Shown one piece after another: positions 5,001 to 30,347 of a stretch of 32,000 bases of DNA. Source of the stretch: Dickeya solani IPO 2222 (GTDB lineage: Bacteria > Pseudomonadota > Gammaproteobacteria > Enterobacterales > Enterobacteriaceae); NCBI RefSeq assembly GCF_001644705.1, contig NZ_CP015137.1, positions 2,250,001 to 2,282,000 of the forward strand. Reading direction: 5' to 3'. Made by a program: the position numbers and the translations under genes. Below the pieces are notes generated by a model, which did no database searches, had not been told where the DNA came from, and saw nothing but the letters and a program-made list of their open reading frames with translations. How positions within the stretch are numbered: the first letter of the stretch is position 1; each line of letters starts with the position of its first letter.

Positions 5001-6206
5001 ATGTTTGAGAAACGCTACCGTATTACGTTGCTGTTCAATGCCAACAAAGTATACGACCGGCAGGTGGTTGAAGGCGTAGGTGAGTACCTACAGGCGTCTC
5101 AGTGCGACTGGGATATCTTCATCGAGGAGGATTTCCGCTGCCGCATCGACAATATCCGCGACTGGCTGGGGGATGGCGTAATCGCGGATTTCGACGATCC
5201 GGCGATTATTGCGTTGCTGTCCGGGGTGCGAGTGCCGCTGGTGGGCGTGGGCGGTTCTTACCACAACCTACCGGATTATCCGCCGGTGCATTATATCGCC
5301 ACCGACAATCACGCGCTGGTAGAGAGCGCGTTTTTGCATCTGAAGAATAAAGGGTTGAACCGGTTCGCGTTTTACGGCCTGCCGGCATCGGTGGGAAAAG
5401 GGTGGGCGCAGGAGCGGGAGCACGCCTTTCGGCAACTGGTGGCGGCGGAGCAGTATCAGGGCGTGGTGTATCAGGGCATGGAGACATCGCCGGGCAATTG
5501 GCAGTATGCCCAGAACCGGCTGGCGGACTGGATCCAGACCCTGCCGCCGCAAACCGGTATCATCGCGGTGACGGATGCCCGCGCCCGCCATCTTTTGCAG
5601 GTGTGTGAGCACCTGAACATCGCGGTGCCGGAAAAGCTATGCGTGATCGGTATCGACAACGAAGAACTGACCCGTTACCTGTCGCGCGTCGCCCTATCTT
5701 CGGTGGCGCAGGGGTCGCGGCAGATGGGGTATCGGGCTGCCAAGCTGTTGCACCAGCTGTTGCTGACGCCATATGCGCTGCCGTTGCAGCGCATTCTGGT
5801 GCCGCCGTTGCGGGTGGTGGAGCGCAGTTCGACCGATTACCGTTCGGTGCATGACCCGGCGGTGATTCAGGCGATGCATTTCATCCGTCATCATGCCTGT
5901 AAAGGCATCAAGGTGGAGCAGGTGCTGGATGCGGTCGGGCTGTCGCGTTCCAACCTTGAAAAGCGCTTCAAGGATGAAACCGGGCAGACTATTCACGGCA
6001 TGATCCACACCGAAAAACTAGAGCGGGCGAGAAATCTGCTGGTGTCTACCTCGCTGTCGATCAACGAGATTTCATCCATGTGCGGTTATCCCTCATTGCC
6101 GTATTTCTATTCCGTGTTTCGAAAAGATTACGACCTGACGCCGCGTGAATACCGCGAGCGCTATGGCGAAGGCGGCTACGGCGACAGTCGGTATGACCAT
6201 GAATGA
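5001..6206 (+). CDS. xylR: Xylose operon regulator, AraC/XylS family with periplasmic-binding-protein-like sensor domain
   Basis: From ATG 5001 the protein reads MFEKRYRITLLFNANKVYDRQVVEGVGEYLQASQCDWDIFIEEDF, collinear with the E. coli XylR N-terminus. It has a C-terminal AraC HTH (SINEISSMCGYPSLPYFYSVFRKDYDLTPREYR). The track start at 4959 adds 14 residues with no XylR counterpart. Confidence 0.92.
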   Translation: MFEKRYRITLLFNANKVYDRQVVEGVGEYLQASQCDWDIFIEEDFRCRIDNIRDWLGDGVIADFDDPAIIALLSGVRVPLVGVGGSYHNLPDYPPVHYIATDNHALVESAFLHLKNKGLNRFAFYGLPASVGKGWAQEREHAFRQLVAAEQYQGVVYQGMETSPGNWQYAQNRLADWIQTLPPQTGIIAVTDARARHLLQVCEHLNIAVPEKLCVIGIDNEELTRYLSRVALSSVAQGSRQMGYRAAKLLHQLLLTPYALPLQRILVPPLRVVERSSTDYRSVHDPAVIQAMHFIRHHACKGIKVEQVLDAVGLSRSNLEKRFKDETGQTIHGMIHTEKLERARNLLVSTSLSINEISSMCGYPSLPYFYSVFRKDYDLTPREYRERYGEGGYGDSRYDHE

Positions 6207-18475: not shown

Positions 18476-18490
18476 GACTGTCGGCATAAC

Positions 18491-18520
18491 GCGCGCGGGG
18501 AGTTCCCCGTGCGCTTTTCT
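18491..18520 (+). terminator. Rho-independent terminator of indC
   Basis: GCGCGCGGGG-agtt-CCCCGTGCGC is a 10-bp stem (one G-U pair) with a 4-nt loop, followed by TTTTCT. It starts 16 nt after the indC stop. Confidence 0.8.
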
Positions 18521-18565
18521 GCGTTGTCCCATTATCAAACCGATTTTTTCGCTGTTTTGTCGACA

Positions 18566-18595
18566 TAATCCCATGTTTTAACGCATTAATCCCAT
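18566..18595 (+). promoter_or_regulatory. Tandem AATCCCAT direct repeat upstream of the KAS III-like gene (candidate activator site)
   Basis: CATAATCCCATGTTTT and CATTAATCCCATTTTT start 21 bp apart. The same tandem motif occurs, in the same orientation relative to its gene, upstream of the AraC-type gene at 23879-23917. Confidence 0.45.
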
Positions 18596-18799
18596 TTTTG
18601 AGATAAACGCATTCTGAAAACAAGGCGACGGCAATTGCGGATAAAAACAAAACTCGTTTGTTGGCAAAGTGTCTGTAGATTGACTGTGCGCGATCATGGG
18701 TCATGAACGGTGTTGCTGCAATTATGGCTTCACTATTAGTGTCATAAGCGTTTGTGCGACATGGGGACGGTAGCCGTGCGAACTTCATCGGAAACCGGC

Positions 18800-19732
18800 A
18801 TGTTTTGCCTTAATGCCATTCATCATGAAGCGCCGGAGCGCATCCGGCGTTTTCCCCTGGGGGAACTGGGGGCTTCGCATCAGCTGCGGGAAGGGCAGCG
18901 CCGCATGATGGAAAAGCTGTATCAACTGAAGACGGTGCCGATGCGCTCCGACAACCATCAGGCGATGCTGGAGTCGGTGGTGGCGGGGCTGGTTGATAGC
19001 TGGCCGACGCTGCCTGCACAGGAAGGGCTGCTGATCTATGCCAAAACGCAGACGCATAACACTTTCTTTGACCGCCACTGGCTGGATGACATTCTGCATC
19101 GCCAGCGGCTGGGGCGCTGGGACGTCACGACGTTCGGTCTGAATCATTGCGCCAGCGCGCTGTCGGCGTTGCATCTGGTGCGGCACAGCGCGGTTCGCCG
19201 GAACAAGCCGGTGCTGTTGTTGACGGGGGAGAAGGCGTTTCACCCTGAAATCAACCGATTCACGGTCGGCGTACAGGGAGAACTGCCGGTGGCGGCGCTC
19301 TTCAATGCGACGAACAGCCCGTGGCAGGTGACGTTTACGGCGGTCAGGCACCTGAGCCGTTTTTATAACAATCCGAGCAATATGACCCGGCAGGAAAAAG
19401 CGGAATTGAATGGCTGCCTGCTGGATGAACTGTGCCGTTTTATTGTCGATGCCGTTAGGGACAGCGGTATAGGCATGGACGAGATGGACTATTTTGTTCC
19501 CTGCAATCTTAATGTCCCGTTATTACGTCAGATGGCGCAACGTTTGAATATGGGCGATCGCTTATTCAGCCAACAGGTTTCTGATTACGGTCATCTGTAT
19601 TGTTCGGACGTTTTATTTAATTTTTCTTCATTAATGAAAACTACAACCGGTCGCGCGAAAAACTATTTTTGTTTTTCGATGGGAATGGGGATCACGCTTT
19701 CCTGCGCGCTGATACAGCAAATTGATATTTAA
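18800..19732 (+). CDS. vfmA: KAS III (FabH)-like thiolase-fold enzyme with a non-canonical active site; first gene of a five-gene operon
   Basis: FabH-like length (about 311 aa from ATG 18800) and motif order: FGLNHCASALSALH (nucleophile Cys), YFVPCNLNVPLL (in place of the FabH PHQAN), DYGHLYCSD (in place of GNTSAAS), C-terminal SMGMGITLSCALI. The start is uncertain (TTG 18752, ATG 18761 and ATG 18800 are all in frame). The symbol is assigned by synteny with the Dickeya vfmAZBCD/E/FGHIJ order as I recall it, not by alignment. Confidence 0.72.
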   Translation: MFCLNAIHHEAPERIRRFPLGELGASHQLREGQRRMMEKLYQLKTVPMRSDNHQAMLESVVAGLVDSWPTLPAQEGLLIYAKTQTHNTFFDRHWLDDILHRQRLGRWDVTTFGLNHCASALSALHLVRHSAVRRNKPVLLLTGEKAFHPEINRFTVGVQGELPVAALFNATNSPWQVTFTAVRHLSRFYNNPSNMTRQEKAELNGCLLDELCRFIVDAVRDSGIGMDEMDYFVPCNLNVPLLRQMAQRLNMGDRLFSQQVSDYGHLYCSDVLFNFSSLMKTTTGRAKNYFCFSMGMGITLSCALIQQIDI

Positions 19733-19745
19733 ACAGGAGACAGAC

Positions 19746-20012
19746 ATGTCTGCGCTATTAATCACTATTCAACAGGCGTTACGCGAAGTCATGGAGAATG
19801 ACGACATCAATATCAGTGAAAAAACGGATTTTGATCATGACCTCGACCTGGACTCGGTGATGTTTGTGCAATTTTTGCTGACGCTTGAAGATAACATCGA
19901 CGGACTGCTGTTCGATCCTGACCAAATCAACATGGATGCCTTCGCCACCGTGGGTAGCCTGATTGGCTGGCTGAATGCCAATGTGTTGCAGGAGGTGCGG
20001 CATGTCAGTTGA
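19746..20012 (+). CDS. vfmZ: Small acyl/peptidyl carrier protein
   Basis: 88 aa from ATG 19746 (AGGAGA 8 nt upstream). Contains the phosphopantetheine-attachment motif DLDLDSVMFVQFLLTLED. The track start at 19722 adds 8 residues. Confidence 0.75.
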   Translation: MSALLITIQQALREVMENDDINISEKTDFDHDLDLDSVMFVQFLLTLEDNIDGLLFDPDQINMDAFATVGSLIGWLNANVLQEVRHVS

Positions 20013-20613
20013 ACGCGTCAAGCAGGTGTGGGAGGTTTTTCGGGATCAGCCGTTGTCCGATGCGCTGACCTGCCTGCTACAACCACCGTCGGAAGAGGCG
20101 CAATACGTTCATCCGATTGGCTATCAGATTCAGGAAATCAGCAGCCTGCCTGACGCCGACCAGCCACAGCGCTTGTTTGACCGGGTGCTGAATCACCTCG
20201 GTCTGGATGCGGTGCGCGGTACGGATACGCTGGCGCTGCCGGCCAGTTTCCCGATACTGGTGTGCGCCGCCCGTCTGGGCGTGCTGGCCCGCATGCAGAC
20301 CATGAGTTGGCAGCATCTGTCCAGCCGTAACAGCTTTGGCACCAAAACCACCCGTCATCAGTTGATCAAAGCCAGCTTCGCCGACGTGGCCGGTAAGGCG
20401 GCGTTGCTGCTGGAACAACAGTATCAGCGTTTGCAGGAGGTCGACCTGGCTGGTCTGGAGGACGATCACTACCAGATCACTCAGCTTAATAACGAAGCGG
20501 AAAAGATGATGGGCGGACACGGTTTCCTGCTGGGCAATACCCACAGCCTGTCCTATTTCTCCATGATGCTCTACAGCATCTATGGCAAGGCGAGCTGTCT
20601 GGCGGCGGCCTGA
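20002..20613 (+). CDS. vfmB: Hypothetical protein with no motif I can recognise; translationally coupled to the carrier protein gene
   Basis: 203 aa from ATG 20002 (AGGAGG at 19990-19995). It overlaps the carrier protein stop by 11 nt. Coding-like composition. Symbol by synteny only. Confidence 0.62.
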   Translation: MSVERVKQVWEVFRDQPLSDALTCLLQPPSEEAQYVHPIGYQIQEISSLPDADQPQRLFDRVLNHLGLDAVRGTDTLALPASFPILVCAARLGVLARMQTMSWQHLSSRNSFGTKTTRHQLIKASFADVAGKAALLLEQQYQRLQEVDLAGLEDDHYQITQLNNEAEKMMGGHGFLLGNTHSLSYFSMMLYSIYGKASCLAAA

Positions 20614-20634
20614 ATACGGAAAAGGATAGCGACG

Positions 20635-21990
20635 ATGAGCCTGATCTCGCGTGTGATGTCCAGAGCCGCCCCGGCTGCGAGCGGGGATGTGCGGCAGATC
20701 ATGGCATTGGCCTGGCCGATGATGGTGACTGCGGTAGTGGTGTCGCTGTCTCAGAATATGCAGATTGCGATTCTGGGCAACGGCACCGAAAGTCAGACGC
20801 TGCTGACGCTGTCCTTTTTGCAGCCGTTCAACTTCCTGTTTATCGCCATTCTGGAATGTCTGGCGATCACCAATCAGGTGTTCAGCGCTCGCTCCCGTCA
20901 TGACTGGCCGCGACAGCGCATCTGGCACAGTACGCTGTGGCTCGGGGGCGCCGGCGTGCTGATGACGGCGCTGGCGGCGCTGTTGTGCCGGGTACTGGCA
21001 TTGCCGCTGTCCGGCTGGATGAACAGTCCGGATCTGGCGTGGATGCAGCGCGCCGCGCCCGGGTATCTGCTGTCGATGACGCCGTTTCTGGTGCTGGAAA
21101 TGTGCAACGCGGCGCTGCGTGGGCAGGGGCGAACCGTGCCGGCCATGACGCTAATGTGTGCCTATGTGCTGCTGAACGCCGCGGGCTGTTACCTGGGTTT
21201 TCACGTCTACCAGCTTGGTTTGGATGCCGTGCTGCTGGCAAACAGCGTTCCGGCGCTGGTGCTGCTGCCGTTGGCGGTGCGTGCGCTGCGTCGGATCGCC
21301 ACACCGGTGGCGGATGAACGGCCGCAGGCGTTCGCGCCTCGCCTGCTGGCGTTGCTGACCAACGCCGGGTTGCCGGTATGCTTTTCCATGCTGGTGGTGT
21401 TCGTCAGTTCGATGGTGATTTTTCCACTGGTGGCTGCGCTGGGGGCGGGATTTTTGCCCGCGTTCCTGATCGTGATAAAGCTGCGGGCTTTCTTCATCAT
21501 TCCGGCGGTGGCGACCGGTTCCGCCATCGCTATTCTGCTGAACCAGCGCCTCAAAACCCATGCCGCGCCGCTGCTGGCGAGCCTGCTGAATAATGGCGTG
21601 TGGCTTATCGCGCTGGTCTATCTGGCGTTGACCGTCGGTGTCTGCTGGGTGCGTGACGGTATTCTGGCCGGGTTCTCCAATGACGAGGCGATCCGCCAGT
21701 CTAGCCAGACGCTGCTGTTGCTGTTGCTGCCGACGTTTTTCCTCACCTCGCTGGTGGCGGCGCTGCAAACGCTGCTGGAACAGATGGAACGGGGAAAACG
21801 GGTGCTGGTTTTCACGCTGGTGCTGGAACTGCTGATGGTGGCGGTCGCGCTGATTGCGCATCGTTACTTTAACGATGTGCAGGCGATCGCCGGTCTGATG
21901 GTGGCGTTTAGCCTGCTGTACGCCGCGGTGTTCCTGCGTGAGTACCGGTTGCTGGCCAGCGCGCTGGGAGAACGGGATGCTGCTGTATAG
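20635..21990 (+). CDS. vfmC: MATE/MOP-superfamily efflux protein
   Basis: 451 aa with about 12 hydrophobic segments and a MATE-like N-terminus (RQIMALAWPMMVTAVVVSLSQNMQIAILGN). AAAGGA lies 8 nt upstream of the ATG. Confidence 0.75.
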   Translation: MSLISRVMSRAAPAASGDVRQIMALAWPMMVTAVVVSLSQNMQIAILGNGTESQTLLTLSFLQPFNFLFIAILECLAITNQVFSARSRHDWPRQRIWHSTLWLGGAGVLMTALAALLCRVLALPLSGWMNSPDLAWMQRAAPGYLLSMTPFLVLEMCNAALRGQGRTVPAMTLMCAYVLLNAAGCYLGFHVYQLGLDAVLLANSVPALVLLPLAVRALRRIATPVADERPQAFAPRLLALLTNAGLPVCFSMLVVFVSSMVIFPLVAALGAGFLPAFLIVIKLRAFFIIPAVATGSAIAILLNQRLKTHAAPLLASLLNNGVWLIALVYLALTVGVCWVRDGILAGFSNDEAIRQSSQTLLLLLLPTFFLTSLVAALQTLLEQMERGKRVLVFTLVLELLMVAVALIAHRYFNDVQAIAGLMVAFSLLYAAVFLREYRLLASALGERDAAV

Positions 21991-23065
21991 TCTGTGCTAT
22001 CCCTTGATGTGGTTGGCGACCCTCGTCCAGTACAACTACTACCGCGTACTGGTGAAGTTCAAGCGCCGCCCGTCGCTGCTGCTTAAAGTGCGGATCAAGC
22101 CGGAAACGCATTACATCCGGCTGTGCCGCGCGTTGCGTCTGGCGGATTTGTGGTTGCTGGAGCGCTGTTCTCTGCATCTGGCGGCTCGCTATCTGCTGCA
22201 CCTGTTCGAAACCACGCGTTATATCTCTTACAAGCAGATGGACCACGAATATCTGGCCGGTTTTCGGCAGGAGACGGTCTGTTTTCAGCACCAGAACGTG
22301 TATGTGTTTCGCTGGGTGCCGCCGCCGGCGGGCGCGCCGGCAAAAACCGTCTTGCTGGTGCATGGTTGGGAGGGGCGCGGCATTATGTTCCGGCCGCTGT
22401 GCGAGGCGCTAAAAGCGCAGGGATACGGCGTAGTGATGCCGGATCTGCTGGCGCACGGGTTGTCTGAGGGAAAGCGGGTATCCAACTATGAGCTGGCCAG
22501 TCTGCTTATCCGGCTGGGGCAGCGCTACGGCCCGTTCTGTGCGGTGGTCGGGCATTCCAGCGGCGGTCTGGTGTGTAGCCTGGCGCTGGCGCAGGGACTG
22601 GCGGCGGAGCGGCTGGTGCTGCTGGCCAGTCCGGACAATTTCGGCAAGATGATCGATCGGTTTCTGGCGGGCGCTTCGGTGTCGGCGTCGTTGGCGGCGC
22701 CCATGAAAGCGATTTATGCGCAACGCTTTGGCTTTCATCCCGATCAGGTCGGCGAAGCGCTCTACCGCATGCTCGATTGTCCGGCGCTGATTTGCCACGA
22801 CTGGCAGGATGTTCGTGTCCATCCGGAGGTGGCGGACGAGATCCACCGGGCGTTTGCCCGCAGCGACGTGTTCTATACCCGTGGGCTGGGGCATCTGGGG
22901 ATTTTACGCAGCCCCCAGGTACACCAGCGCATTCTGTCGTTCTTATCTGACGCCGGAGTGGGAACTGAAAGGCAGATACCGCCACTCATTCAGCATTCGA
23001 TCATGCCTGATGACGCGGATCCGCCGCGGTACGGTCCGATACCGGTGGCATCAAAGCGGGCATGA
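21977..23065 (+). CDS. vfmD: Alpha/beta-fold hydrolase (Ser-Asp-His) with an ~110-aa N-terminal extension
   Basis: VLLVHGWEGRG (oxyanion region), nucleophile elbow GHSSGG, and later D (HDWQD) and H (GLGHLG). ATG 21977 (GGAGA upstream) overlaps the MATE gene stop. The track start at 21938 is less likely. Confidence 0.72.
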   Translation: MLLYSLCYPLMWLATLVQYNYYRVLVKFKRRPSLLLKVRIKPETHYIRLCRALRLADLWLLERCSLHLAARYLLHLFETTRYISYKQMDHEYLAGFRQETVCFQHQNVYVFRWVPPPAGAPAKTVLLVHGWEGRGIMFRPLCEALKAQGYGVVMPDLLAHGLSEGKRVSNYELASLLIRLGQRYGPFCAVVGHSSGGLVCSLALAQGLAAERLVLLASPDNFGKMIDRFLAGASVSASLAAPMKAIYAQRFGFHPDQVGEALYRMLDCPALICHDWQDVRVHPEVADEIHRAFARSDVFYTRGLGHLGILRSPQVHQRILSFLSDAGVGTERQIPPLIQHSIMPDDADPPRYGPIPVASKRA

Positions 23066-23128: not shown

Positions 23129-23692
23129 TTAATTGCAGAGATTCTGGATATTATCCAGCAGTACGTGACGTGAGAACAGGTGGCGCTGTTTGCCGAAAAT
23201 AATATCGAAGCTCATGTTTTGCAGGGTGCGAGGCTGTTCGTTTTCCCGTTCCAGCGAGACCGCTTTGCGATACTTCAGCGGCGGAATGTTGTAGGTCTTG
23301 GTAAAACAACGGGAAAAATGCGGCAGCGAAGAAAAACCGCAGGCGTAGCAAATATCGGTGAGCGACCAATTGGGCGAAATATGAATGATCTCTTTTGCCA
23401 GCGTCAGGCGTACACGCCAAATCCAGCGCATCGGCGTAATGTTATAGACCTGATTGAAAAGACGGCAAATATCAAATTTTGATTTACCGCTGACGTCTTC
23501 AAGATCTTCCAGCGTAATATTGTTACCGATATTGTCGATGATATAGTCAATAATTCCCGCCAGGCTGGTCGCTTTATTATTGGCTGCGAGCGTTTTGCGC
23601 AAATTAGGGTGACGGCGGTACATATCCTGAATCAGATTGTTGTTGAAAATATCGTTATCCAACGTATGGGCGTAAGTGTTCTGTAAGCTCAT
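23129..23692 (-). CDS. vfmE: Small AraC/XylS-family transcriptional regulator
   Basis: 187 aa from the first ATG (23692). The track start at 23743 is TTG. AraC-type double HTH: ITLEDLEDVSGKSKFDICRLFNQVYNITPMRWIWRVRLTLAKEII...SLTDICYACGFSSLPHFSRCFTKTYNIPPLKYRK. There is no large ligand domain. The gene is AT-richer than its neighbours. Confidence 0.8.
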   Translation of the reverse strand: MSLQNTYAHTLDNDIFNNNLIQDMYRRHPNLRKTLAANNKATSLAGIIDYIIDNIGNNITLEDLEDVSGKSKFDICRLFNQVYNITPMRWIWRVRLTLAKEIIHISPNWSLTDICYACGFSSLPHFSRCFTKTYNIPPLKYRKAVSLERENEQPRTLQNMSFDIIFGKQRHLFSRHVLLDNIQNLCN

Positions 23693-23810
23693 GGTGTCAT
23701 CCCAAAAAAATAGATTCCCCGTGTCTGGTCCGGCTAAATCCAAAAATCCTTACAGCGGCGAAGTCAGTGGTTAATTATTGTCCTTTGGTCAGATGTGCGA
23801 TCTGTCTAAC

Positions 23811-23825
23811 GCAAATTGTGTGCCA
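23811..23825 (-). promoter_or_regulatory. Near-consensus sigma54 (-24/-12) promoter directed at the AraC-type gene
   Basis: The minus strand reads aTGGCACacaatTTGCg, an exact match to the TGGCAC-N5-TTGC core. It is about 120 nt upstream of ATG 23692. A sigma54-dependent activator is encoded 4 kb away. Confidence 0.7.
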
Positions 23826-23878
23826 TGTTGTTAATGGTTGTTTTTCAAGGGAAATACTTACACCTACCTGTAACTCAT

Positions 23879-23917
23879 CCCATTAATGGGATTGAGCCGT
23901 GCCAAACATGGGATTTT
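23879..23917 (-). promoter_or_regulatory. Candidate upstream activator sites: 14-bp palindrome plus a second AATCCCAT copy
   Basis: The minus strand reads AAAAATCCCATGTTTGGCACGGCTCAATCCCATTAATGGGA. The AATCCCAT copies are 22 bp apart. The proximal one is part of the perfect palindrome TCCCATTAATGGGA (23879-23892). It lies 55-90 bp upstream of the sigma54 -24 element, the usual position for enhancer-binding-protein sites. Confidence 0.45.
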
Positions 23918-24066
23918 TCGTCTCGCAAATGACAATCTGGATGAGCTACCCTGCCACGAGCCGGGGGGAGCACGCCGTGCCGGTGGGAGGCTGTGACGTC
24001 TGCATCGGCTGCTGGAGGCCGCCGTCAGCCCGACGAGCGGGTCACCGACCGTGATCAGGATGTAAT

Positions 24067-24081
24067 TGGTATGATTTGTGC
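24067..24081 (+). promoter_or_regulatory. Weak candidate sigma54-type promoter facing the ABC-transporter operon
   Basis: TGGTAT-GATTT-GTGC keeps the GG-N10-GC spacing but departs from the consensus at several positions. Confidence 0.22.
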
Positions 24082-24327
24082 TGTTAATTAGAGGACGCGG
24101 GAGGACGCGGAACCGATGTTCGCGAAGATCATGCGCGTGCTGTCTGACGCAGATGAACGGGAAACGGCATGGAGAGCCAGTCAACGCAAGGAAAGGGCGT
24201 CGTCATGGACAGGTGGGGGTATTTTGGACACATTTTTAAAACCAGAGATAAAAGTGAGTGGCCTGCAGCCTGTAAGATACCCTCGGCCTTAGGAAGGCCG
24301 ACTCTATTTATACACTGAGGATTTCCC

Positions 24328-25035
24328 ATGACGGTGCTGGTTCAACTTGATAATGTGCATAAAATCTTTCTTACCGATGAAATTGAAACGCATGCCCTTA
24401 GCAAGATAAACCTTTCTATTCACTCGGGAGAATACGTCTCTATCGCGGGACCGTCCGGCTGTGGGAAATCGACACTGTTGTCCATCATGGGGTTGCTGGA
24501 CACGCCAACGGAAGGGCGTTACCGGCTGAACGGCACGGATGTTGAACGCATCGGCCGTCGGGAGATGGCTCGTCTGCGCAACCGGGAAATCGGCTTTATC
24601 TTTCAGTCGTTTAATCTGATAAGCGACCTGACTATCGCGGAAAACGTTGCGTTGCCGCTCACTTACCGCAATGACCTGTCGCGATCGGAGCAGAAAGCGC
24701 GGGTCGTCCAGGCGTTGGAAAAAGTCAACATGTCGCATCGGGTGCGGCACTACCCGTCACAGCTTTCCGGCGGTCAGCAACAGCGCGTGGCAGTGGCGCG
24801 CGCCATTGTCGGCAAGCCGTCGTTGCTGCTGGCGGACGAACCGACCGGGAATCTGGATTCCGCCAACGCTGAAGCGGTGATGAATATTCTGGATGAGTTA
24901 CATCAGGACGGCGCGACCATCTGCATCGTTACCCACGATCCGCGTTCCGCCATGCGCGCCCAGCGCACCATTGTGCTGTCTGACGGGCAGGTGGTGGCCG
25001 ATGGCGAAAACGGACAATTGCGTCAGGCGGTATAA
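24328..25035 (+). CDS. vfmF: MacB/LolD-type ABC transporter ATP-binding protein
   Basis: 235 aa: Walker A GPSGCGKSTLL, signature LSGGQQQRVAVARA, Walker B LLLADEPTGNLD. GAGG lies 7 nt upstream of the ATG. Confidence 0.88.
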   Translation: MTVLVQLDNVHKIFLTDEIETHALSKINLSIHSGEYVSIAGPSGCGKSTLLSIMGLLDTPTEGRYRLNGTDVERIGRREMARLRNREIGFIFQSFNLISDLTIAENVALPLTYRNDLSRSEQKARVVQALEKVNMSHRVRHYPSQLSGGQQQRVAVARAIVGKPSLLLADEPTGNLDSANAEAVMNILDELHQDGATICIVTHDPRSAMRAQRTIVLSDGQVVADGENGQLRQAV

Positions 25036-25039
25036 CACG

Positions 25040-27475
25040 ATGAATTTATGGTTCGATATCCGTTACGCTCTGCGCCTGCTGCTCAAAAGCCCTGGATTCA
25101 GCGTGCTGACCATTACCGTGATGGCCTGCGGACTGGGGCTGGCGCTGTATATGTATTCCGTCATCAACACCATCATGTACAAAACCCTGCCGTATCCGAA
25201 GGGGGAAGGCATGGTGATGGTGACGCCGAATGTGGGTGGAGTGAGTCTTGATGACTCAGGTTTGAATTTCCTTGATTATACAGAGCTTTCTCGTCAACTG
25301 ACCAAGATAGACGATGTCGGATATTTTTATGCTGAGTATTTGGATCTTAATGATGGAAAAAGATCTGTTAGGTATATAGGTATCCTCAGCACACCCCAGA
25401 TGTTTGATTATACTGGTGTATCACCGTTAATCGGGCGTGTTTTGAATGATAGCGATATGTTGTCTGGGTCAGTACCTGTTACGGTAATTAGTTATGACCT
25501 ATGGGAAAATTACTTTAACGGCAGAAAGGACATTCTTAACCAATCGGTACAGATAAATGGTGTGCGTACTTATATTGTTGGCGTTATGCCTAAAGGTTTT
25601 GCATTTCCATTTTTTCATGACCTGTGGTTGCCATCAAAAATAAAGTTACAATCTTTCTCTCTGAGAAATGAGGCACCAGAGGTTTATGTTTATGCTCATT
25701 TAAATCCTCGATTCTCCCTGGATGAGGCTAATCAGGAAATTGCATCCGTAATGGAACGGCTGGCTGATAAATATCCAGAAAGCAATAAAGGAATTTCAGC
25801 GATAGCACTTTCCTTTCAAGTCAGCTTTATGGGCGATGATACTGCTCAGGTGTTTCTTATTACTCTATCTGCTGTGGCATTTGTTCTATTATTAGCCTGT
25901 TGTAATGTGGGGAATTTGCTTTTATCTCGCTCTCATCAGCGTACGAGAGAGATTGCAGTACGTGTCGCTTTAGGTTCACCCATGATTCGGTTGGTCATGC
26001 AAATGTTATGGGAGAGCTTAATTATATGTATCCTGGCTGGAATTGTCGGGGTATTGCTTGCGGCTTGGGGATTGGATTTAACAAATACGATATTTCCCCG
26101 CTTTGTTCCTAATCGTGTGCCATCCTGGTGGCATTTATCACTTGACGGCAGCATGATCCTGAATGCGGGCATTTTAGTGATTGTCACCGCATTCATTACT
26201 GGTGCATTACCTGCCTGGAAAATTGCTAATGGTCAATTTTTTCAGGCGCTAAGGGATGGCTCCCGTGGTATACCCGGTTATCGAACCAGTAAGGCTGGAC
26301 GTTCATTAGTCATTATTGAGGTGGCACTCTCTTTTTCAATTTTATGCATTAGTATCTTATTGTTAATTTTAGTGACAAAGGCGAAAAATGCAGACTATGG
26401 GGTGGCAACTGATGGCTACCTTATATCTCGCGTCAATCTTAATAAAGATGTTTACCCTAATGTGCAAAGCAGACGTGACTTTTATCTGGAATTATCTAAA
26501 CAATTACATGATATACCCGGCATAACTGCCGAATCGCTTACAACCAGTGCTCCGGGTGAATTCACAGCTGCTCATCAGCTTCTTATTGAAAACAGAGAAG
26601 ATGGAAGTAATGGTGATGAGCATTATCCCATGGTGAATGATGTGCAAGTCATGCCAGGAGGCCTTGCAGGGATGGGCGTCAAAGTGATTTATGGTCGTGA
26701 ATTTTCAGCATTGGATAATGAAAAATCGCCTCCTGCGGCTGTAATCAGCGAATCGCTAGCTAGAAAGTATTGGCCTGATGGAAAAAGTGCAATTGGCAAA
26801 CGCGTCCGTTTTAGAAACGAGGAAGATTCTGGTTGGTATACAATAATCGGTGTTGTAACCCATGTTGTACATGGCAGGCCGTTTAGTGCGTTCAAAAATC
26901 GTTCAACAGTCTATCGTTCACTATTACAACGACCCACGCCCATGATGACTATTATGCTTAAGGCTGAGCATCTTTCTGCTTTGCCTGAGAAGCTCAAAAT
27001 CGCGCTATATAACGTTGATAGTATGATGCCGGTGGCGCCGCCTCAAACGTTAAACAATATGCTTGAAAGAAATACGCTTGGTGTCAGGTTCGTCGCTAAT
27101 TTATTCATGCTGTTTGGGATTATTGCAATAGTGCTCTCATCCAGTGGTATCTATGCCGTGACACAAAATGCAATCAGCCAACGAACCCAAGAAATAGGTA
27201 TCCGGCAGGTACTGGGGGCGACCCCTAGCCATTTACTTAAAATGTTGATGTTACAAGGGGTGAACCAACTTATTGCTGGTTTGATACTGGGATTACCCTT
27301 GGCATTGCTGGCTGCCCCCGGAATTAACCGCGCTTTAGGCGATGGCAGAGGCCATTTTGTGTTGCTGTTTGTCTGCGTCGCTTTATTTCTCATGCTCATC
27401 GTCGCGCTCGCCACCTGGATCCCGTCCCGACGCGTCATCATGATGAAACCGGGTGATGCGATACGTTATGAATAA
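25040..27475 (+). CDS. vfmG: MacB/FtsX-type ABC permease with duplicated FtsX modules
   Basis: 811 aa from ATG 25040, which is 4 nt after the ATPase stop. N-terminal MNLWFDIRYALRLLLKSPGFSVLTI is typical of large duplicated FtsX permeases. There are two FtsX-type segments (IAVRVALGSPMIRLV...; IGIRQVLGATPSHLL...). The track start at 24893 lies inside the ATPase gene and is rejected. Confidence 0.85.
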   Translation: MNLWFDIRYALRLLLKSPGFSVLTITVMACGLGLALYMYSVINTIMYKTLPYPKGEGMVMVTPNVGGVSLDDSGLNFLDYTELSRQLTKIDDVGYFYAEYLDLNDGKRSVRYIGILSTPQMFDYTGVSPLIGRVLNDSDMLSGSVPVTVISYDLWENYFNGRKDILNQSVQINGVRTYIVGVMPKGFAFPFFHDLWLPSKIKLQSFSLRNEAPEVYVYAHLNPRFSLDEANQEIASVMERLADKYPESNKGISAIALSFQVSFMGDDTAQVFLITLSAVAFVLLLACCNVGNLLLSRSHQRTREIAVRVALGSPMIRLVMQMLWESLIICILAGIVGVLLAAWGLDLTNTIFPRFVPNRVPSWWHLSLDGSMILNAGILVIVTAFITGALPAWKIANGQFFQALRDGSRGIPGYRTSKAGRSLVIIEVALSFSILCISILLLILVTKAKNADYGVATDGYLISRVNLNKDVYPNVQSRRDFYLELSKQLHDIPGITAESLTTSAPGEFTAAHQLLIENREDGSNGDEHYPMVNDVQVMPGGLAGMGVKVIYGREFSALDNEKSPPAAVISESLARKYWPDGKSAIGKRVRFRNEEDSGWYTIIGVVTHVVHGRPFSAFKNRSTVYRSLLQRPTPMMTIMLKAEHLSALPEKLKIALYNVDSMMPVAPPQTLNNMLERNTLGVRFVANLFMLFGIIAIVLSSSGIYAVTQNAISQRTQEIGIRQVLGATPSHLLKMLMLQGVNQLIAGLILGLPLALLAAPGINRALGDGRGHFVLLFVCVALFLMLIVALATWIPSRRVIMMKPGDAIRYE

Positions 27476-27634: not shown

Positions 27635-29035
27635 ATGGCGGATAAGCAACATATCCTGATTGTTGATGATGACGCGCATATTCTGGCCAGCCTGCAGATG
27701 TTACTGTCCATGGAAGGCTATCAGGTCACACTCGCTTCTGCCGTTGAACAGGTGCCCGTTCAGTTGTCCCAGCATGATTTCGATTTGATCCTGATGGATA
27801 TGAACTATCAACGGGATACCACGTCCGGGCAGGAAGGGCTGGTGTTGCTGGAAGAGATAAAGCGTTACGACGAGTACCTGCCGGTGGTGGCGATGACCGG
27901 CTGGGGTAGCGTCGATATTGCGGTGAGCGCCATGCAGGCGGGCGCGGTGGATTTTATTCAGAAACCCTGGGACAACGAGCGGTTGCTGAATGTGATTCGC
28001 CAGCAGATCTCCTTCAGCCTCAGCCAGCGTTCCGGCAAACGGCTGAAAGAAGAAAACAAGCTGCTGAAGCTGGAACTGGAAGACAATTTCAATGGCGAGT
28101 GGGTGGTGGAGTCCGCGCCGATGAAACAATTGATGCGGGTAGTGGAGCAGGTGGCTGCAACCGAGACCAACATCCTGATTCTGGGTGAGAATGGCACCGG
28201 CAAAAGCCTGCTGGCCCGGGTCATTCATCAGCTTTCTCCGCGCCGTGACGAGAACATGGTGTCGGTAAACATGGGCTGCATCAACGAAAATCTGTTTGAA
28301 AGCGAGATGTTCGGCCATGTGAAAGGCGCGTTCACCGACGCCCGGGAAAGCCGCGTCGGGCGTTTCGAACTGGCGGACAAAGGGACGCTGTTTCTGGATG
28401 AGATCGGCAACCTGCCGATGACCCAACAAAGCAAGCTGCTGCGTATTCTGGAAGAACGCTGTTTTGAGCGGGTTGGCTCGTCCCGTACGCTAAAAACCAA
28501 TTGCCGTATTATTGCCGCCACCAACGCTGAACTGGACGTCAGAGTGGCGGAAGGGACGTTTCGTCAGGATCTCTATTACCGCTTCAATACCATTGAGTTA
28601 CGTGTGCCGTCACTGGTGGAACGGCAGCAGGACATCATGCCGCTGGCGTTGAATTTCATTGATCGCTATGCCAGAAAATACAATAAGCCGGCGCCGGGAC
28701 TTAGCCCGTCTGGACAGGCGGCGCTGTCGGGTTACCATTGGCCGGGTAATATCCGCGAACTGAGTCATTTGCTGGAGCGGGCGGTGTTGCTGTGCGGATC
28801 ATCCCGGCTGAACAGTGACGATATTTTTCCGTCACTGCCTGCCGCGCCGCAAAAAGTGGCGAAAGCCGAGCCGGAACTGGCTTCCGATGCGACGCTGGCC
28901 GATATTGAAGAACGCCTGCTGTGTCAGCGTATGGCGAAGTTTGAGGGCAACGCCGTTAAGGCTGCCCATTCGCTGGGGCTGAGTCGCAGTGCGTTTTACC
29001 GACGACTGGAAAAATACAAGATTAACCATGAGTAA
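27635..29035 (+). CDS. vfmH: Sigma54-dependent response regulator (NtrC family: REC - AAA+ - Fis-type HTH)
   Basis: 466 aa from ATG 27635 (AAGGA 6 nt upstream). REC domain (ILIVDDD...LILMDMNY), Walker A GENGTGKS, sigma54-contact loop ESEMFGHVKGAFTDA (a GAFTGA variant), C-terminal HTH AAHSLGLSRSAFYRRLEKY. Confidence 0.9.
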   Translation: MADKQHILIVDDDAHILASLQMLLSMEGYQVTLASAVEQVPVQLSQHDFDLILMDMNYQRDTTSGQEGLVLLEEIKRYDEYLPVVAMTGWGSVDIAVSAMQAGAVDFIQKPWDNERLLNVIRQQISFSLSQRSGKRLKEENKLLKLELEDNFNGEWVVESAPMKQLMRVVEQVAATETNILILGENGTGKSLLARVIHQLSPRRDENMVSVNMGCINENLFESEMFGHVKGAFTDARESRVGRFELADKGTLFLDEIGNLPMTQQSKLLRILEERCFERVGSSRTLKTNCRIIAATNAELDVRVAEGTFRQDLYYRFNTIELRVPSLVERQQDIMPLALNFIDRYARKYNKPAPGLSPSGQAALSGYHWPGNIRELSHLLERAVLLCGSSRLNSDDIFPSLPAAPQKVAKAEPELASDATLADIEERLLCQRMAKFEGNAVKAAHSLGLSRSAFYRRLEKYKINHE

Positions 29036-30347
29036 ACTCGACTCCTCCTTTGAGCCTCCTCACCTGTTGTCATTCAATGTCGCAGCGATTGCCGGCTTGC
29101 TGGGGTATTTCCTGCTATGGCTGTTTCCCGACCAGTCGGTGTACCTGAAAATACTGACGGTATTCATTATTTTCCTGTGTCTGGTCTACAGCAGCTTTAC
29201 ATTTTCCGAGCGACTGAACGGCAAGATCCACGTCGTGTCCAACCTGTTGGAAGCGCTGGAACAGGAAAACTTCAGCCTGCGCGGTGTTACCAAGGACAAA
29301 GGCGCGTTTGATAACCTGATCCGCCAGATTAACCAGCTTTCCGGCACGATGGCGCGCAGCCGTCAGCAGCAAAAAGAAACCTACTATGTGCTGCACAAGG
29401 TGATCTCCAATATCAATATCAGCGTGTTCGCGCTGGATGCGGAGCGGCGCATCATCTGGTGCAACGACGCGGCGGCGGCGCTGGTCAACAAACCGCTATC
29501 GTTGCTGGTGGGACAACCGGCGGCGGAGTTCGGGCTGGAAGGGTTGTTGCAGCAGCCGTCCGATGCCGAGCCGGTCGACTGGCGCTTCCCCGGCACACGG
29601 GGAATGTTCCAGATTCGTCACGATTCCTTTATCGAAGACGGCCGGCAAAACCACCTGTTATTCATCAGCGATGTGAGCAAGCTGTTGCGTAACGAGGAGC
29701 AGAAAACCTGGCAGAACCTGCTGCGGGTGATCAGCCATGAGATCAACAACTCGCTGACGCCGATTGCCTCTATCAGCCAGACGCTGTTGCAGGTGTTCCG
29801 TAAGGATAATCAGCATCAGGCGGCGCCGGATTTGGTCAACGGCATGGAGATCATCAACAATCGCGCCCGCGAACTGATTACTTTTGTCGGCAGTTATCGT
29901 CAGTTGAACCGCCTGCCGCCGGCCAACAAACAGCCCTGCGATATCGCCGGGTTGATGATGCAAATGGCGATGCTGTTCCCACAGCGCAAACTGGTCCTTT
30001 CCGGGGACGCGCCGCAGCAGGCGATGGTCGATGCCAATCAGATGCAGCAGATGTTCATCAACTTATTGAAAAACGCCGATGAAGCGATGGCGCCCGGGCA
30101 GGGTGAAATCGTGCTGCGCTGGAAGGTGATTGCCCGGCAACTGCATATCGAGATTATCGACCAAGGCAAAGGGGTGGCGAATATCGAAAACCTGTTCGTG
30201 CCGTTTTATACCACCAAGACACATGGCAGCGGCATCGGACTGATTCTGTGCCGGCAGATTGTCGAAGGCCATGACGGGCATCTGACGCTGGAGAACCGTA
30301 AGGATGCAGAAGGTTGTGTCGTCAATATCTTCCTGCCGCTGGGATGA
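29028..30347 (+). CDS. vfmI: Sensor histidine kinase (two N-terminal TM helices, PAS-like region, HisKA, HATPase_c)
   Basis: 439 aa from ATG 29028, which overlaps the regulator stop (ATGAGTAA). H-box RVISHEINNSLTPI, N-box NLLKNADEA, G1 DQGKG, G2 GSGIGL. The track start at 28989 lies inside vfmH. Confidence 0.88.
   Translation: MSKLDSSFEPPHLLSFNVAAIAGLLGYFLLWLFPDQSVYLKILTVFIIFLCLVYSSFTFSERLNGKIHVVSNLLEALEQENFSLRGVTKDKGAFDNLIRQINQLSGTMARSRQQQKETYYVLHKVISNINISVFALDAERRIIWCNDAAAALVNKPLSLLVGQPAAEFGLEGLLQQPSDAEPVDWRFPGTRGMFQIRHDSFIEDGRQNHLLFISDVSKLLRNEEQKTWQNLLRVISHEINNSLTPIASISQTLLQVFRKDNQHQAAPDLVNGMEIINNRARELITFVGSYRQLNRLPPANKQPCDIAGLMMQMAMLFPQRKLVLSGDAPQQAMVDANQMQQMFINLLKNADEAMAPGQGEIVLRWKVIARQLHIEIIDQGKGVANIENLFVPFYTTKTHGSGIGLILCRQIVEGHDGHLTLENRKDAEGCVVNIFLPLG

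Follow-up and report, generated by a model that had tools for sequence, protein, structure and literature searches.

A conserved sigma-54-type promoter upstream of vfmE as the probable entry point of the Vfm quorum-sensing signal in Dickeya

Through what kind of promoter does the Vfm quorum-sensing signal of Dickeya enter transcription? According to the account given in PMC7912708, the signal is perceived by VfmI/VfmH; in vitro, the promoters of vfmE and vfmA are bound and activated by VfmH, and those of vfmFGHIJ or the pectinase genes are not, while VfmE binds all the vfm promoters and the pectinase promoters (PMC7912708, citing Nasser 2013). The cascade from VfmI/VfmH through vfmE to its targets was demonstrated by experiment in 2013, and vfmH is required for vfmE promoter activity (PMC10714721). 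The part played by sigma-54 was left open in 2023, as VfmH has GAFTDA in place of GAFTGA and a pull-down with it brought no RpoN (PMC10714721). HrpS-hrpL is the only D. dadantii entry in a review of sigma-54 in plant pathogens from 2021, and the accessible literature contains no report of a -24/-12 element at vfmE (an earlier mention in Nasser 2013 or Lv 2019 is possible).

The window (the whole stretch of DNA that was analysed, 32,000 nucleotides long) is the Dickeya pecS-indABC-vfm region; vfmE is its AraC-type gene, and VfmH and VfmI are respectively its enhancer-binding protein and its kinase. The genes that matter here are as follows.

18752 to 23065, plus strand: a KAS-III-like gene, an uncharacterised gene, a MATE transporter and an alpha/beta hydrolase (open reading frames and Pfam)
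23129 to 23692, minus strand: vfmE, AraC family, 187 aa (Pfam HTH_18 and HTH_AraC)
24328 to 25035, plus strand: ABC ATPase (open reading frame and Pfam)
24893 to 27475, plus strand: vfmG, an 860-aa MacB/FtsX-type ABC permease (domain scan)
27635 to 29035, plus strand: vfmH, response regulator and sigma-54 enhancer-binding protein (Pfam: REC, AAA+ and HTH_8)
28989 to 30347, plus strand: vfmI, sensor histidine kinase, start codon uncertain (Pfam HATPase_c, weak HisKA and PAS; synteny with D. dadantii vfmI)
after the histidine kinase gene, plus strand: phosphopantetheinyl transferase (open reading frame and Pfam)

From open reading frames, Pfam and synteny, the order indC-vfmAZBCD/vfmE/vfmFGHIJ is that of D. 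dadantii. The window also holds genes that, from reading the translations of their open reading frames, we take to be xylFGHR, argG, pecS, pecM and indA-indB-indC. The VfmE protein is identical to that named 'AraC family transcriptional regulator VfmE [Dickeya]' at NCBI and to the D. undicola 2B12 protein, and VfmH is 98% identical to a named VfmH. The Pfam scan, which covered the window's proteins from 18752 onward, gave VfmH matches to Response_reg (E = 9.4e-24), Sigma54_activat (E = 9.4e-66) and HTH_8 (E = 1.1e-08); its best NCBIfam matches, to a PEP-CTERM response regulator and to AtoC, were both below cutoff. A first-pass annotation made from the DNA alone had placed the window's sole sigma-54 enhancer-binding protein at 27635-29035, in the divergent gene set, and just one Sigma54_activat protein was indeed found. 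Its gene roles were otherwise right, except that the 860-aa open reading frame at 24893-27475 is the permease VfmG rather than the kinase, which lies at 28989-30347.

Upstream of vfmE, on the same strand, are the features on which the rest of the argument turns.

23825 to 23811, minus strand: sigma-54 (-24/-12) promoter of vfmE, TGGCACACAATTTGC, reading TGGCAC, ACAAT, TTGC (exact core match)
23799, minus strand: predicted transcription start of vfmE (+1, a C), by orthology with D. dadantii 3937, 107 nt before the ATG
23799 to 23693, minus strand: 5' leader of vfmE, 107 nt, from the predicted start to the ATG

The element had been read in the first-pass annotation as an exact -24/-12 core pointing at an AraC-type gene with its ATG at 23692, and both parts of that reading stand: TGGCACACAATTTGC has no mismatch to the sigma-54 core TGGCAC-N5-TTGC, and 119 nt downstream of it on the minus strand comes the ATG (23692) of the 187-aa AraC-family gene. 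Its GG (23824-23823, positions -25/-24) and GC (23812-23811, positions -13/-12) doublets are exactly 10 nt apart. The exact core occurs just once on the two strands of the 32-kb window, where 0.10 matches would be expected by chance (dinucleotide-preserving shuffles, 10 out of 100 of which had at least one match); arithmetic scaling of that figure to one strand of the 635-bp vfmE intergenic region gives an expectation of about 0.001. Matches with up to two mismatches numbered 38 in the window against 45 expected by chance, so only the exact site is informative, and further sigma-54 sites in the window were rejected, relaxed matches being no commoner than chance. A scan of 23600-24400 for sigma-70-like promoters found none (1.0 expected).

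The position of the element can be compared with a start site mapped in a close relative. In D. dadantii 3937, vfmE has a 'strong' start at 4735214, which gives a leader of 107 nt in front of the coding sequence at 4735321-4735884 (Forquet et al., PMC9239193 Table S1). The contig L084 encodes the 3937 VfmE protein, and its coordinates differ from those of 3937 by a constant offset at four boundaries (the end of vfmG, the start and end of vfmH, and the start of vfmI). On this contig the motif occupies 5868-5882, and the mapped start falls at 5894, exactly 12 nt past the C of TTGC (5882). The spacing between element, start and ATG in the window is identical to that in L084, the start in the window being placed by orthology with the one mapped in D. 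dadantii. The first-pass annotation had expected a start about 12 nt downstream of TTGC, near 23800, and this agrees, by orthology, with the 12 nt found in D. dadantii. The vfmE start also carries the tag '+pred', signifying that a sigma-70-family predictor called some promoter there as well (Forquet et al., PMC9239193). By inspection, the -10 and -35 positions relative to the vfmE start are a poor fit to sigma-70. To our knowledge, the promoter predictor used in that study had no sigma-54 model, and this may explain why the type of the vfmE promoter went unnoted.

If the element is used, its sequence should be kept where the surrounding DNA is free to change. The vfmE loci of relatives were collected by exact-protein look-ups (a genome scan with exact peptide words from VfmE gave only two Dickeya species). 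Thirteen upstream regions from Pectobacteriaceae were aligned, namely those of the window, Dickeya (undicola, oryzae, chrysanthemi, dianthicola, dadantii, aquatica and poaceiphila), Musicola paradisiaca, three Lonsdalea and the Prodigiosinella-type CE70. Mean column identity was 69%, yet TGGCA and ATTTGC are invariant in 13/13 genomes, and between them the 5-nt spacer varies (ACAAT, with GCAAT in D. aquatica, GTTAT in Musicola and ACTAT in CE70). Of the 16-mer whose conservation across Dickeya had been suggested as a check, the -24 and -12 blocks are thus invariant in the 13 Pectobacteriaceae genomes aligned, and the spacer differs between genomes. Two short blocks held at a fixed spacing around a free spacer are the pattern that selection on a sigma-54 promoter produces. 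Further afield, TGGCATAGCAATTGCT is invariant in Pseudomonas soli, Rahnella and Sodalis, where the surrounding upstream DNA aligns at 66% mean identity, and an exact site, TGGCACGTTGATTGC, stands in front of a vfmE-like gene in Pantoea. The distance from GG to ATG is 129-134 nt in every locus measured. The vfmE site is the best sigma-54-like site in each of the related loci (12-17 kb), and the sole site within one mismatch in 7 of the 12 loci scanned; no other site within one mismatch recurs at a conserved position in the related loci, and a second exact site was seen in Pantoea only. From all this we consider it very probable that the 15-mer is a functional sigma-54 promoter of vfmE and the point at which the Vfm signal enters transcription, although the accessible literature offers no result for vfmE from an rpoN mutant, a promoter point mutant or in vitro transcription.

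Reviews call Vfm Dickeya-specific, yet vfm-like clusters occur in Pseudomonas, Rahnella, Sodalis and Pantoea. Syntenic clusters (vfmAZBCD / vfmE / hlyD-like-vfmFGHIJ) were found in Pseudomonas soli (L079), Rahnella perminowiae (L080/L081) and Sodalis ligni (L082). In the clusters from outside the Pectobacteriaceae soft-rot group, that of Pantoea included, VfmE is about 50% and VfmH about 64% identical, and an extra HlyD-like gene precedes vfmF. Pantoea sp. SGAir0215 (L090) has the part from vfmE to vfmJ only, with vfmAZBCD absent beside vfmE. Its vfmE/hlyD intergenic region (L090:3077-3501) contains two divergent exact -24/-12 sites, TGGCACGTTGATTGC directed towards vfmE and TGGCACACTCTTTGC towards hlyD-vfmFGHIJ, with two TCCCA-N4-TGGGA palindromes between them; this arrangement suggests that the Pantoea sensor operon may be autoregulated, unlike that of Dickeya. 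Lonsdalea (L003-L007) and CE70 (L076-L078) have vfmE genes 83-85% identical and keep the exact sigma-54 promoter, and there vfmE adjoins vfmJ only (in CE70 also a vfmF homologue), with no vfmG/H/I or vfmA-D within 6 kb. In CE70 the promoter and the palindrome are retained in a split vfmJ-vfmF'-vfmE arrangement beside gas-vesicle genes. Prodigiosinella has a published split system of this kind, with vfmJ-vfmF'-vfmE by gas-vesicle genes and a main locus, including vfmH, elsewhere.

A sigma-54 promoter implies an enhancer-binding protein acting from upstream, and two candidate sites are present beyond the -24/-12 element, together with a third feature lying between them and the promoter.

23877 to 23892: proximal upstream activator site, a candidate VfmH dimer site; perfect palindrome ATCCCATTAATGGGAT with core TCCCA-N4-TGGGA, centre -85.5
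23900 to 23913, read on the minus strand: distal upstream activator site; imperfect palindrome TCCCATGTTTGGCA, centre -107.5, 22 bp from the proximal site
23845 to 23841, minus strand: A5 tract (GAAAAAC), about -46 to -42, between the activator sites and -24

The centre of the proximal palindrome is at -85.5 in 12 of the 13 Pectobacteriaceae genomes (and at -84.5 in D. poaceiphila), and the two centres, -85.5 and -107.5, are kept in essentially all the Pectobacteriaceae examined while the intervening DNA diverges. The proximal site is a perfect palindrome in 10/16 genomes, and the TCCCA half-site of the distal one is invariant in the 13-genome alignment. In Pseudomonas, Rahnella and Sodalis the palindrome is centred at -143.5 to -146.5, with a second conserved half-site, CGAAAATGGGA. 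Of the motif AATCCCAT there are four copies in the window, two upstream of vfmE and two upstream of vfmA, and in the related loci palindromes with at most one mismatch are confined to the DNA upstream of vfmE and, in loci that have it, vfmA, with a single stray exception in Lonsdalea (L004, position 403). Since vfmE and vfmA are the two promoters reported to bind VfmH, the TCCCA-N4-TGGGA sites are likely, from their sequence and distribution, to be VfmH binding sites, a claim that we hold somewhat less firmly than that for the promoter itself. A 106-aa TTG-initiated open reading frame (23864-24184, minus strand) overlaps the region upstream of vfmE, palindromes included, and is probably spurious.

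The second occurrence of the tandem sites is where the assignment to VfmH meets its strongest competitor.

18567 to 18603, plus strand: second copy of the tandem sites, upstream of vfmA; TCCCATTTTTGAGA, with AATCCCAT twice, 21 bp apart (motif search)

These sites are centred at -81.5 from the mapped vfmA start. That start, mapped in D. dadantii, is preceded by an invariant TGgCAAAGT (TTGGCAAAGTGTC) that reads as an extended -10 element. A sigma-54 promoter at vfmA was considered and rejected, the best candidates having an 11-nt GG-GC spacing or lacking GC, with the start lying behind the extended -10-like element. Tandem sites at a promoter with no -24/-12 element could mean that the sites belong to VfmE, or that VfmH may also act without sigma-54. 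Thus the tandem TCCCA-N4-TGGGA sites might be boxes for autoregulation by VfmE, with VfmH binding elsewhere in the promoter region: VfmE is reported on all the vfm promoters, including its own and that of vfmA, the same sites occur at vfmA, whose mapped promoter looks sigma-70-type, and, taken as direct repeats, the copies of AATCCCAT have the spacing (21-22 bp) that AraC-family sites typically show. However, a perfect palindrome (10/16 genomes) suits a dimeric Fis-type helix-turn-helix better than a small AraC protein with two helix-turn-helix motifs, the sites are limited to vfmE and vfmA, the promoters reported to bind VfmH, no site within one mismatch lies near the mapped vfmF start, and the phasing of the tandem sites to the -24/-12 element is fixed. 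We regard ownership of the sites by VfmE as unlikely, if well short of negligible, and continue to treat them as candidate VfmH sites.

Other features of the vfmA region deserve a brief record. The vfmA promoter region (18560-18690, plus strand) has a GCAATTGC-GG-AAAAA block whose conservation extends to Rahnella and P. soli. Just past indC, at 18487-18520 (plus strand), a GC-rich hairpin is followed by a T run (GCGCGCGGGGAGTTCCCCGTGCGCTTTT), resembling an intrinsic terminator. A read-through transcript, indC-vfmAZBCDFG, antisense across vfmE, has been described (Forquet et al.).

Can VfmH, with its altered loop, be expected to work with sigma-54 at all? Its loop-1 motif is GAFTDA, not GAFTGA, and the same is true of VfmH in every vfm-like cluster examined, including all those that keep the -24/-12 promoter; among the matches listed, GAFTDA was present in 118/120 homologue clusters (50-98% identity; P0019-P0138). 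GAFTDA is among the tolerated loop variants and is present in Desulfovibrio vulgaris DVU2106, to which sigma-54 target operons have been assigned (PMC4641369), the only characterised GAFTDA activator that we found in the literature. As a family trait that co-occurs with -24/-12 promoters, GAFTDA need not mean that coupling to sigma-54 has been lost. Many of the GAFTDA homologues come from marine Gammaproteobacteria, which points to a large and hardly characterised subfamily of enhancer-binding proteins. One marine homologue of VfmH (51% identical; L089:2607-3334) belongs to a module of HlyD, ABC, MacB permease, activator and kinase genes in which an AraC gene is lacking, with TGGCATAATAGCTGCT about 45 nt upstream of the HlyD gene. 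There are hints here, from gene context, that the ancestral role of VfmH-type activators may have been the control of a MacB-type exporter.

It could still be argued that the -24/-12 match is fortuitous or vestigial, with sigma-70 polymerase transcribing vfmE and VfmH and VfmE serving as conventional upstream activators. Some relatives of enhancer-binding proteins, such as VpsR, do act in that way, VfmH has GAFTDA and brought down no RpoN, and it appears to need no sigma-54 promoter for its action at vfmA and to act with CRP at pelD. Against this, sigma-70 hexamers are absent at vfmE, the start is exactly 12 nt from the GC, and in two bacterial orders it is precisely the -24 and -12 blocks that are invariant while the spacer changes, which would not be expected of a vestige; we think a fortuitous or vestigial match highly improbable. 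It is similarly hard to believe that a real sigma-54 promoter is driven by some enhancer-binding protein other than VfmH, whose role would then be indirect only: in Lonsdalea, where no vfmG, vfmH or vfmI lies within 6 kb, vfmE does survive with its exact promoter and a degraded palindrome, but in vitro the vfmE promoter is bound by VfmH, on which its activity depends, and in Prodigiosinella the missing genes are at a second locus, in which respect Lonsdalea may be alike.

With VfmH as the preferred activator of a sigma-54 promoter, the DNA between its candidate sites and the polymerase would have to bend. By inspection, no convincing match to the integration host factor (IHF) consensus WATCAANNNNTTR lies between the activator sites and -24. 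The A5 tract, whose A columns are invariant or nearly so in the 13-genome alignment, is a possible intrinsic bend, judged from its sequence. In D. zeae MS2 a vfmE promoter probe is bound by IhfA in gel shift, and in D. zeae ihf mutants vfmE expression is down by 2.6-5 log2 units (PMC9452768). The predicted IHF site of D. zeae MS2 corresponds to +22 to +34 in the window, downstream of the start and not between the activator sites and the promoter; the dependence of vfmE on IHF fits what is seen at sigma-54 promoters, although the predicted site lies downstream of the start. This site is overlapped by a 13-mer of the leader, GACAATAATTAAC (23782 to 23770, minus strand; +18 to +30), which is invariant in all 13 Pectobacteriaceae genomes. 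No other close copy of GACAATAATTAAC exists in the window, and the vfmE intergenic region and leader gave no match to Rfam families. The conservation of GACAATAATTAAC is exceeded only by that of the promoter, and it is missing from leaders of the Pseudomonas/Rahnella type.

How might these parts operate together? Sigma-54 RNA polymerase on GG and GC forms a closed complex that cannot open unaided, and by this general behaviour it would sit on the GG at -25/-24 and the GC at -13/-12 of vfmE. VfmI, from domain architecture and the published genetics, would phosphorylate VfmH, and VfmH would assemble on the sites at -107.5 and -85.5 (its binding to the promoter is published, the contacted bases being our prediction). 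Bending of the intervening DNA, through the conserved A-tract or IHF, may then let the AAA+ ring reach sigma-54, and ATP hydrolysis by VfmH would open the vfmE promoter in an rpoN-dependent manner. Transcription would begin at about 23799, giving an mRNA with a 107-nt leader, and VfmE would then activate the vfm operons and the pectinase genes, as has been published.

The two-tier scheme of the first-pass annotation, from kinase to NtrC-type activator to AraC regulator, is thus supported by the conserved element, the orthologous start and the published binding of, and requirement for, VfmH, but it is not a new inference, because the cascade from VfmI/VfmH through VfmE to the vfm operons and pectinase genes was already in print. 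The locus, genes and gene order are those of the Vfm cascade of D. dadantii 3937 and D. oryzae EC1 (Nasser 2013, Lv 2019), from which there is no biological difference. The promoter class, its agreement with the start mapped in D. dadantii and the candidate VfmH operators are what the present analysis adds, and none of the accessible papers states them. Together with the occurrence of the module outside Dickeya, they make up a modest advance that appears to be new.

Nor is the wiring as unusual as the first-pass annotation had held, for there is a classical precedent in XylR acting at Ps1 to express xylS (PMC5481539). On the TOL plasmid pWW0, as is proposed for vfmE, an activator working with a sigma-54 promoter (Ps1) turns on a gene of the AraC family (xylS), and this second regulator turns on output operons, through Pm in the TOL case (PMC5481539). 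The two differ in their input, XylR being a direct sensor of aromatic effectors rather than a two-component response regulator, and in that xylS has a constitutive sigma-70 promoter, Ps2, none being detectable at vfmE. The regulators are not orthologous, VfmH having a receiver domain instead of the V4R/A effector domain, so the Vfm system is not a member of the TOL type. A parallel in the same bacteria is the pathway from HrpX/HrpY to HrpS with sigma-54 and on to hrpL in Dickeya, Erwinia and Pectobacterium, which has the same logic of an enhancer-binding protein fed by a two-component system, and in which the gene for the second-tier regulator likewise has a sigma-54 promoter helped by IHF (PMC8657755, PMC11960120). 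There, however, an ECF sigma factor forms the second tier, the enhancer-binding protein HrpS is without a receiver domain, and the output is type III secretion. VfmH scored 295 bits against the NCBIfam LuxO model, far below its 800-bit cutoff. In Vibrio, LuxO is an NtrC-class quorum-sensing response regulator that acts at the sigma-54 promoters of the Qrr small RNAs and is active at low cell density. Thus LuxO targets small-RNA genes, whereas VfmH targets the gene for a transcription factor and activates when the signal is present.

Outside the Dickeya field, this is an ordinary case of a well-understood promoter class. For Dickeya, the conserved -24/-12 element at the exact mapped start of vfmE answers, at the level of sequence, the question of whether VfmH works with sigma-54: very probably yes, at least at vfmE. 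It also defines a compact promoter of 130 bp with candidate VfmH operators, usable for reporter design. A wider view, which we advance tentatively and with slightly less than even confidence, is that two VfmH sites, a sigma-54 promoter and vfmE form a conserved signal-entry node of a Vfm-like family that extends well beyond Dickeya (to Pseudomonas, Rahnella, Sodalis and Pantoea), that its GAFTDA activators derive from regulators of MacB exporters, that Vfm quorum sensing and pectinase-based virulence have an absolute and so far unrecognised need of RpoN, and that c-di-GMP feeds in through RpoN. In D. dadantii, c-di-GMP controls RpoN levels through EGcpB/EcpC, as reported for hrpL. It is predicted that lower RpoN (for example by way of c-di-GMP and EGcpB/EcpC in D. 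dadantii) would lead to lower vfmE transcription, and if so, the RpoN route would partly explain the lower vfmE promoter activity of an ecpC mutant, which is now attributed to binding of c-di-GMP by VfmE. The widely used vfmE-promoter biosensors should need RpoN, and probably IHF, in their hosts, and mutants of rpoN would be expected not to respond to the Vfm signal and to make little pectinase.
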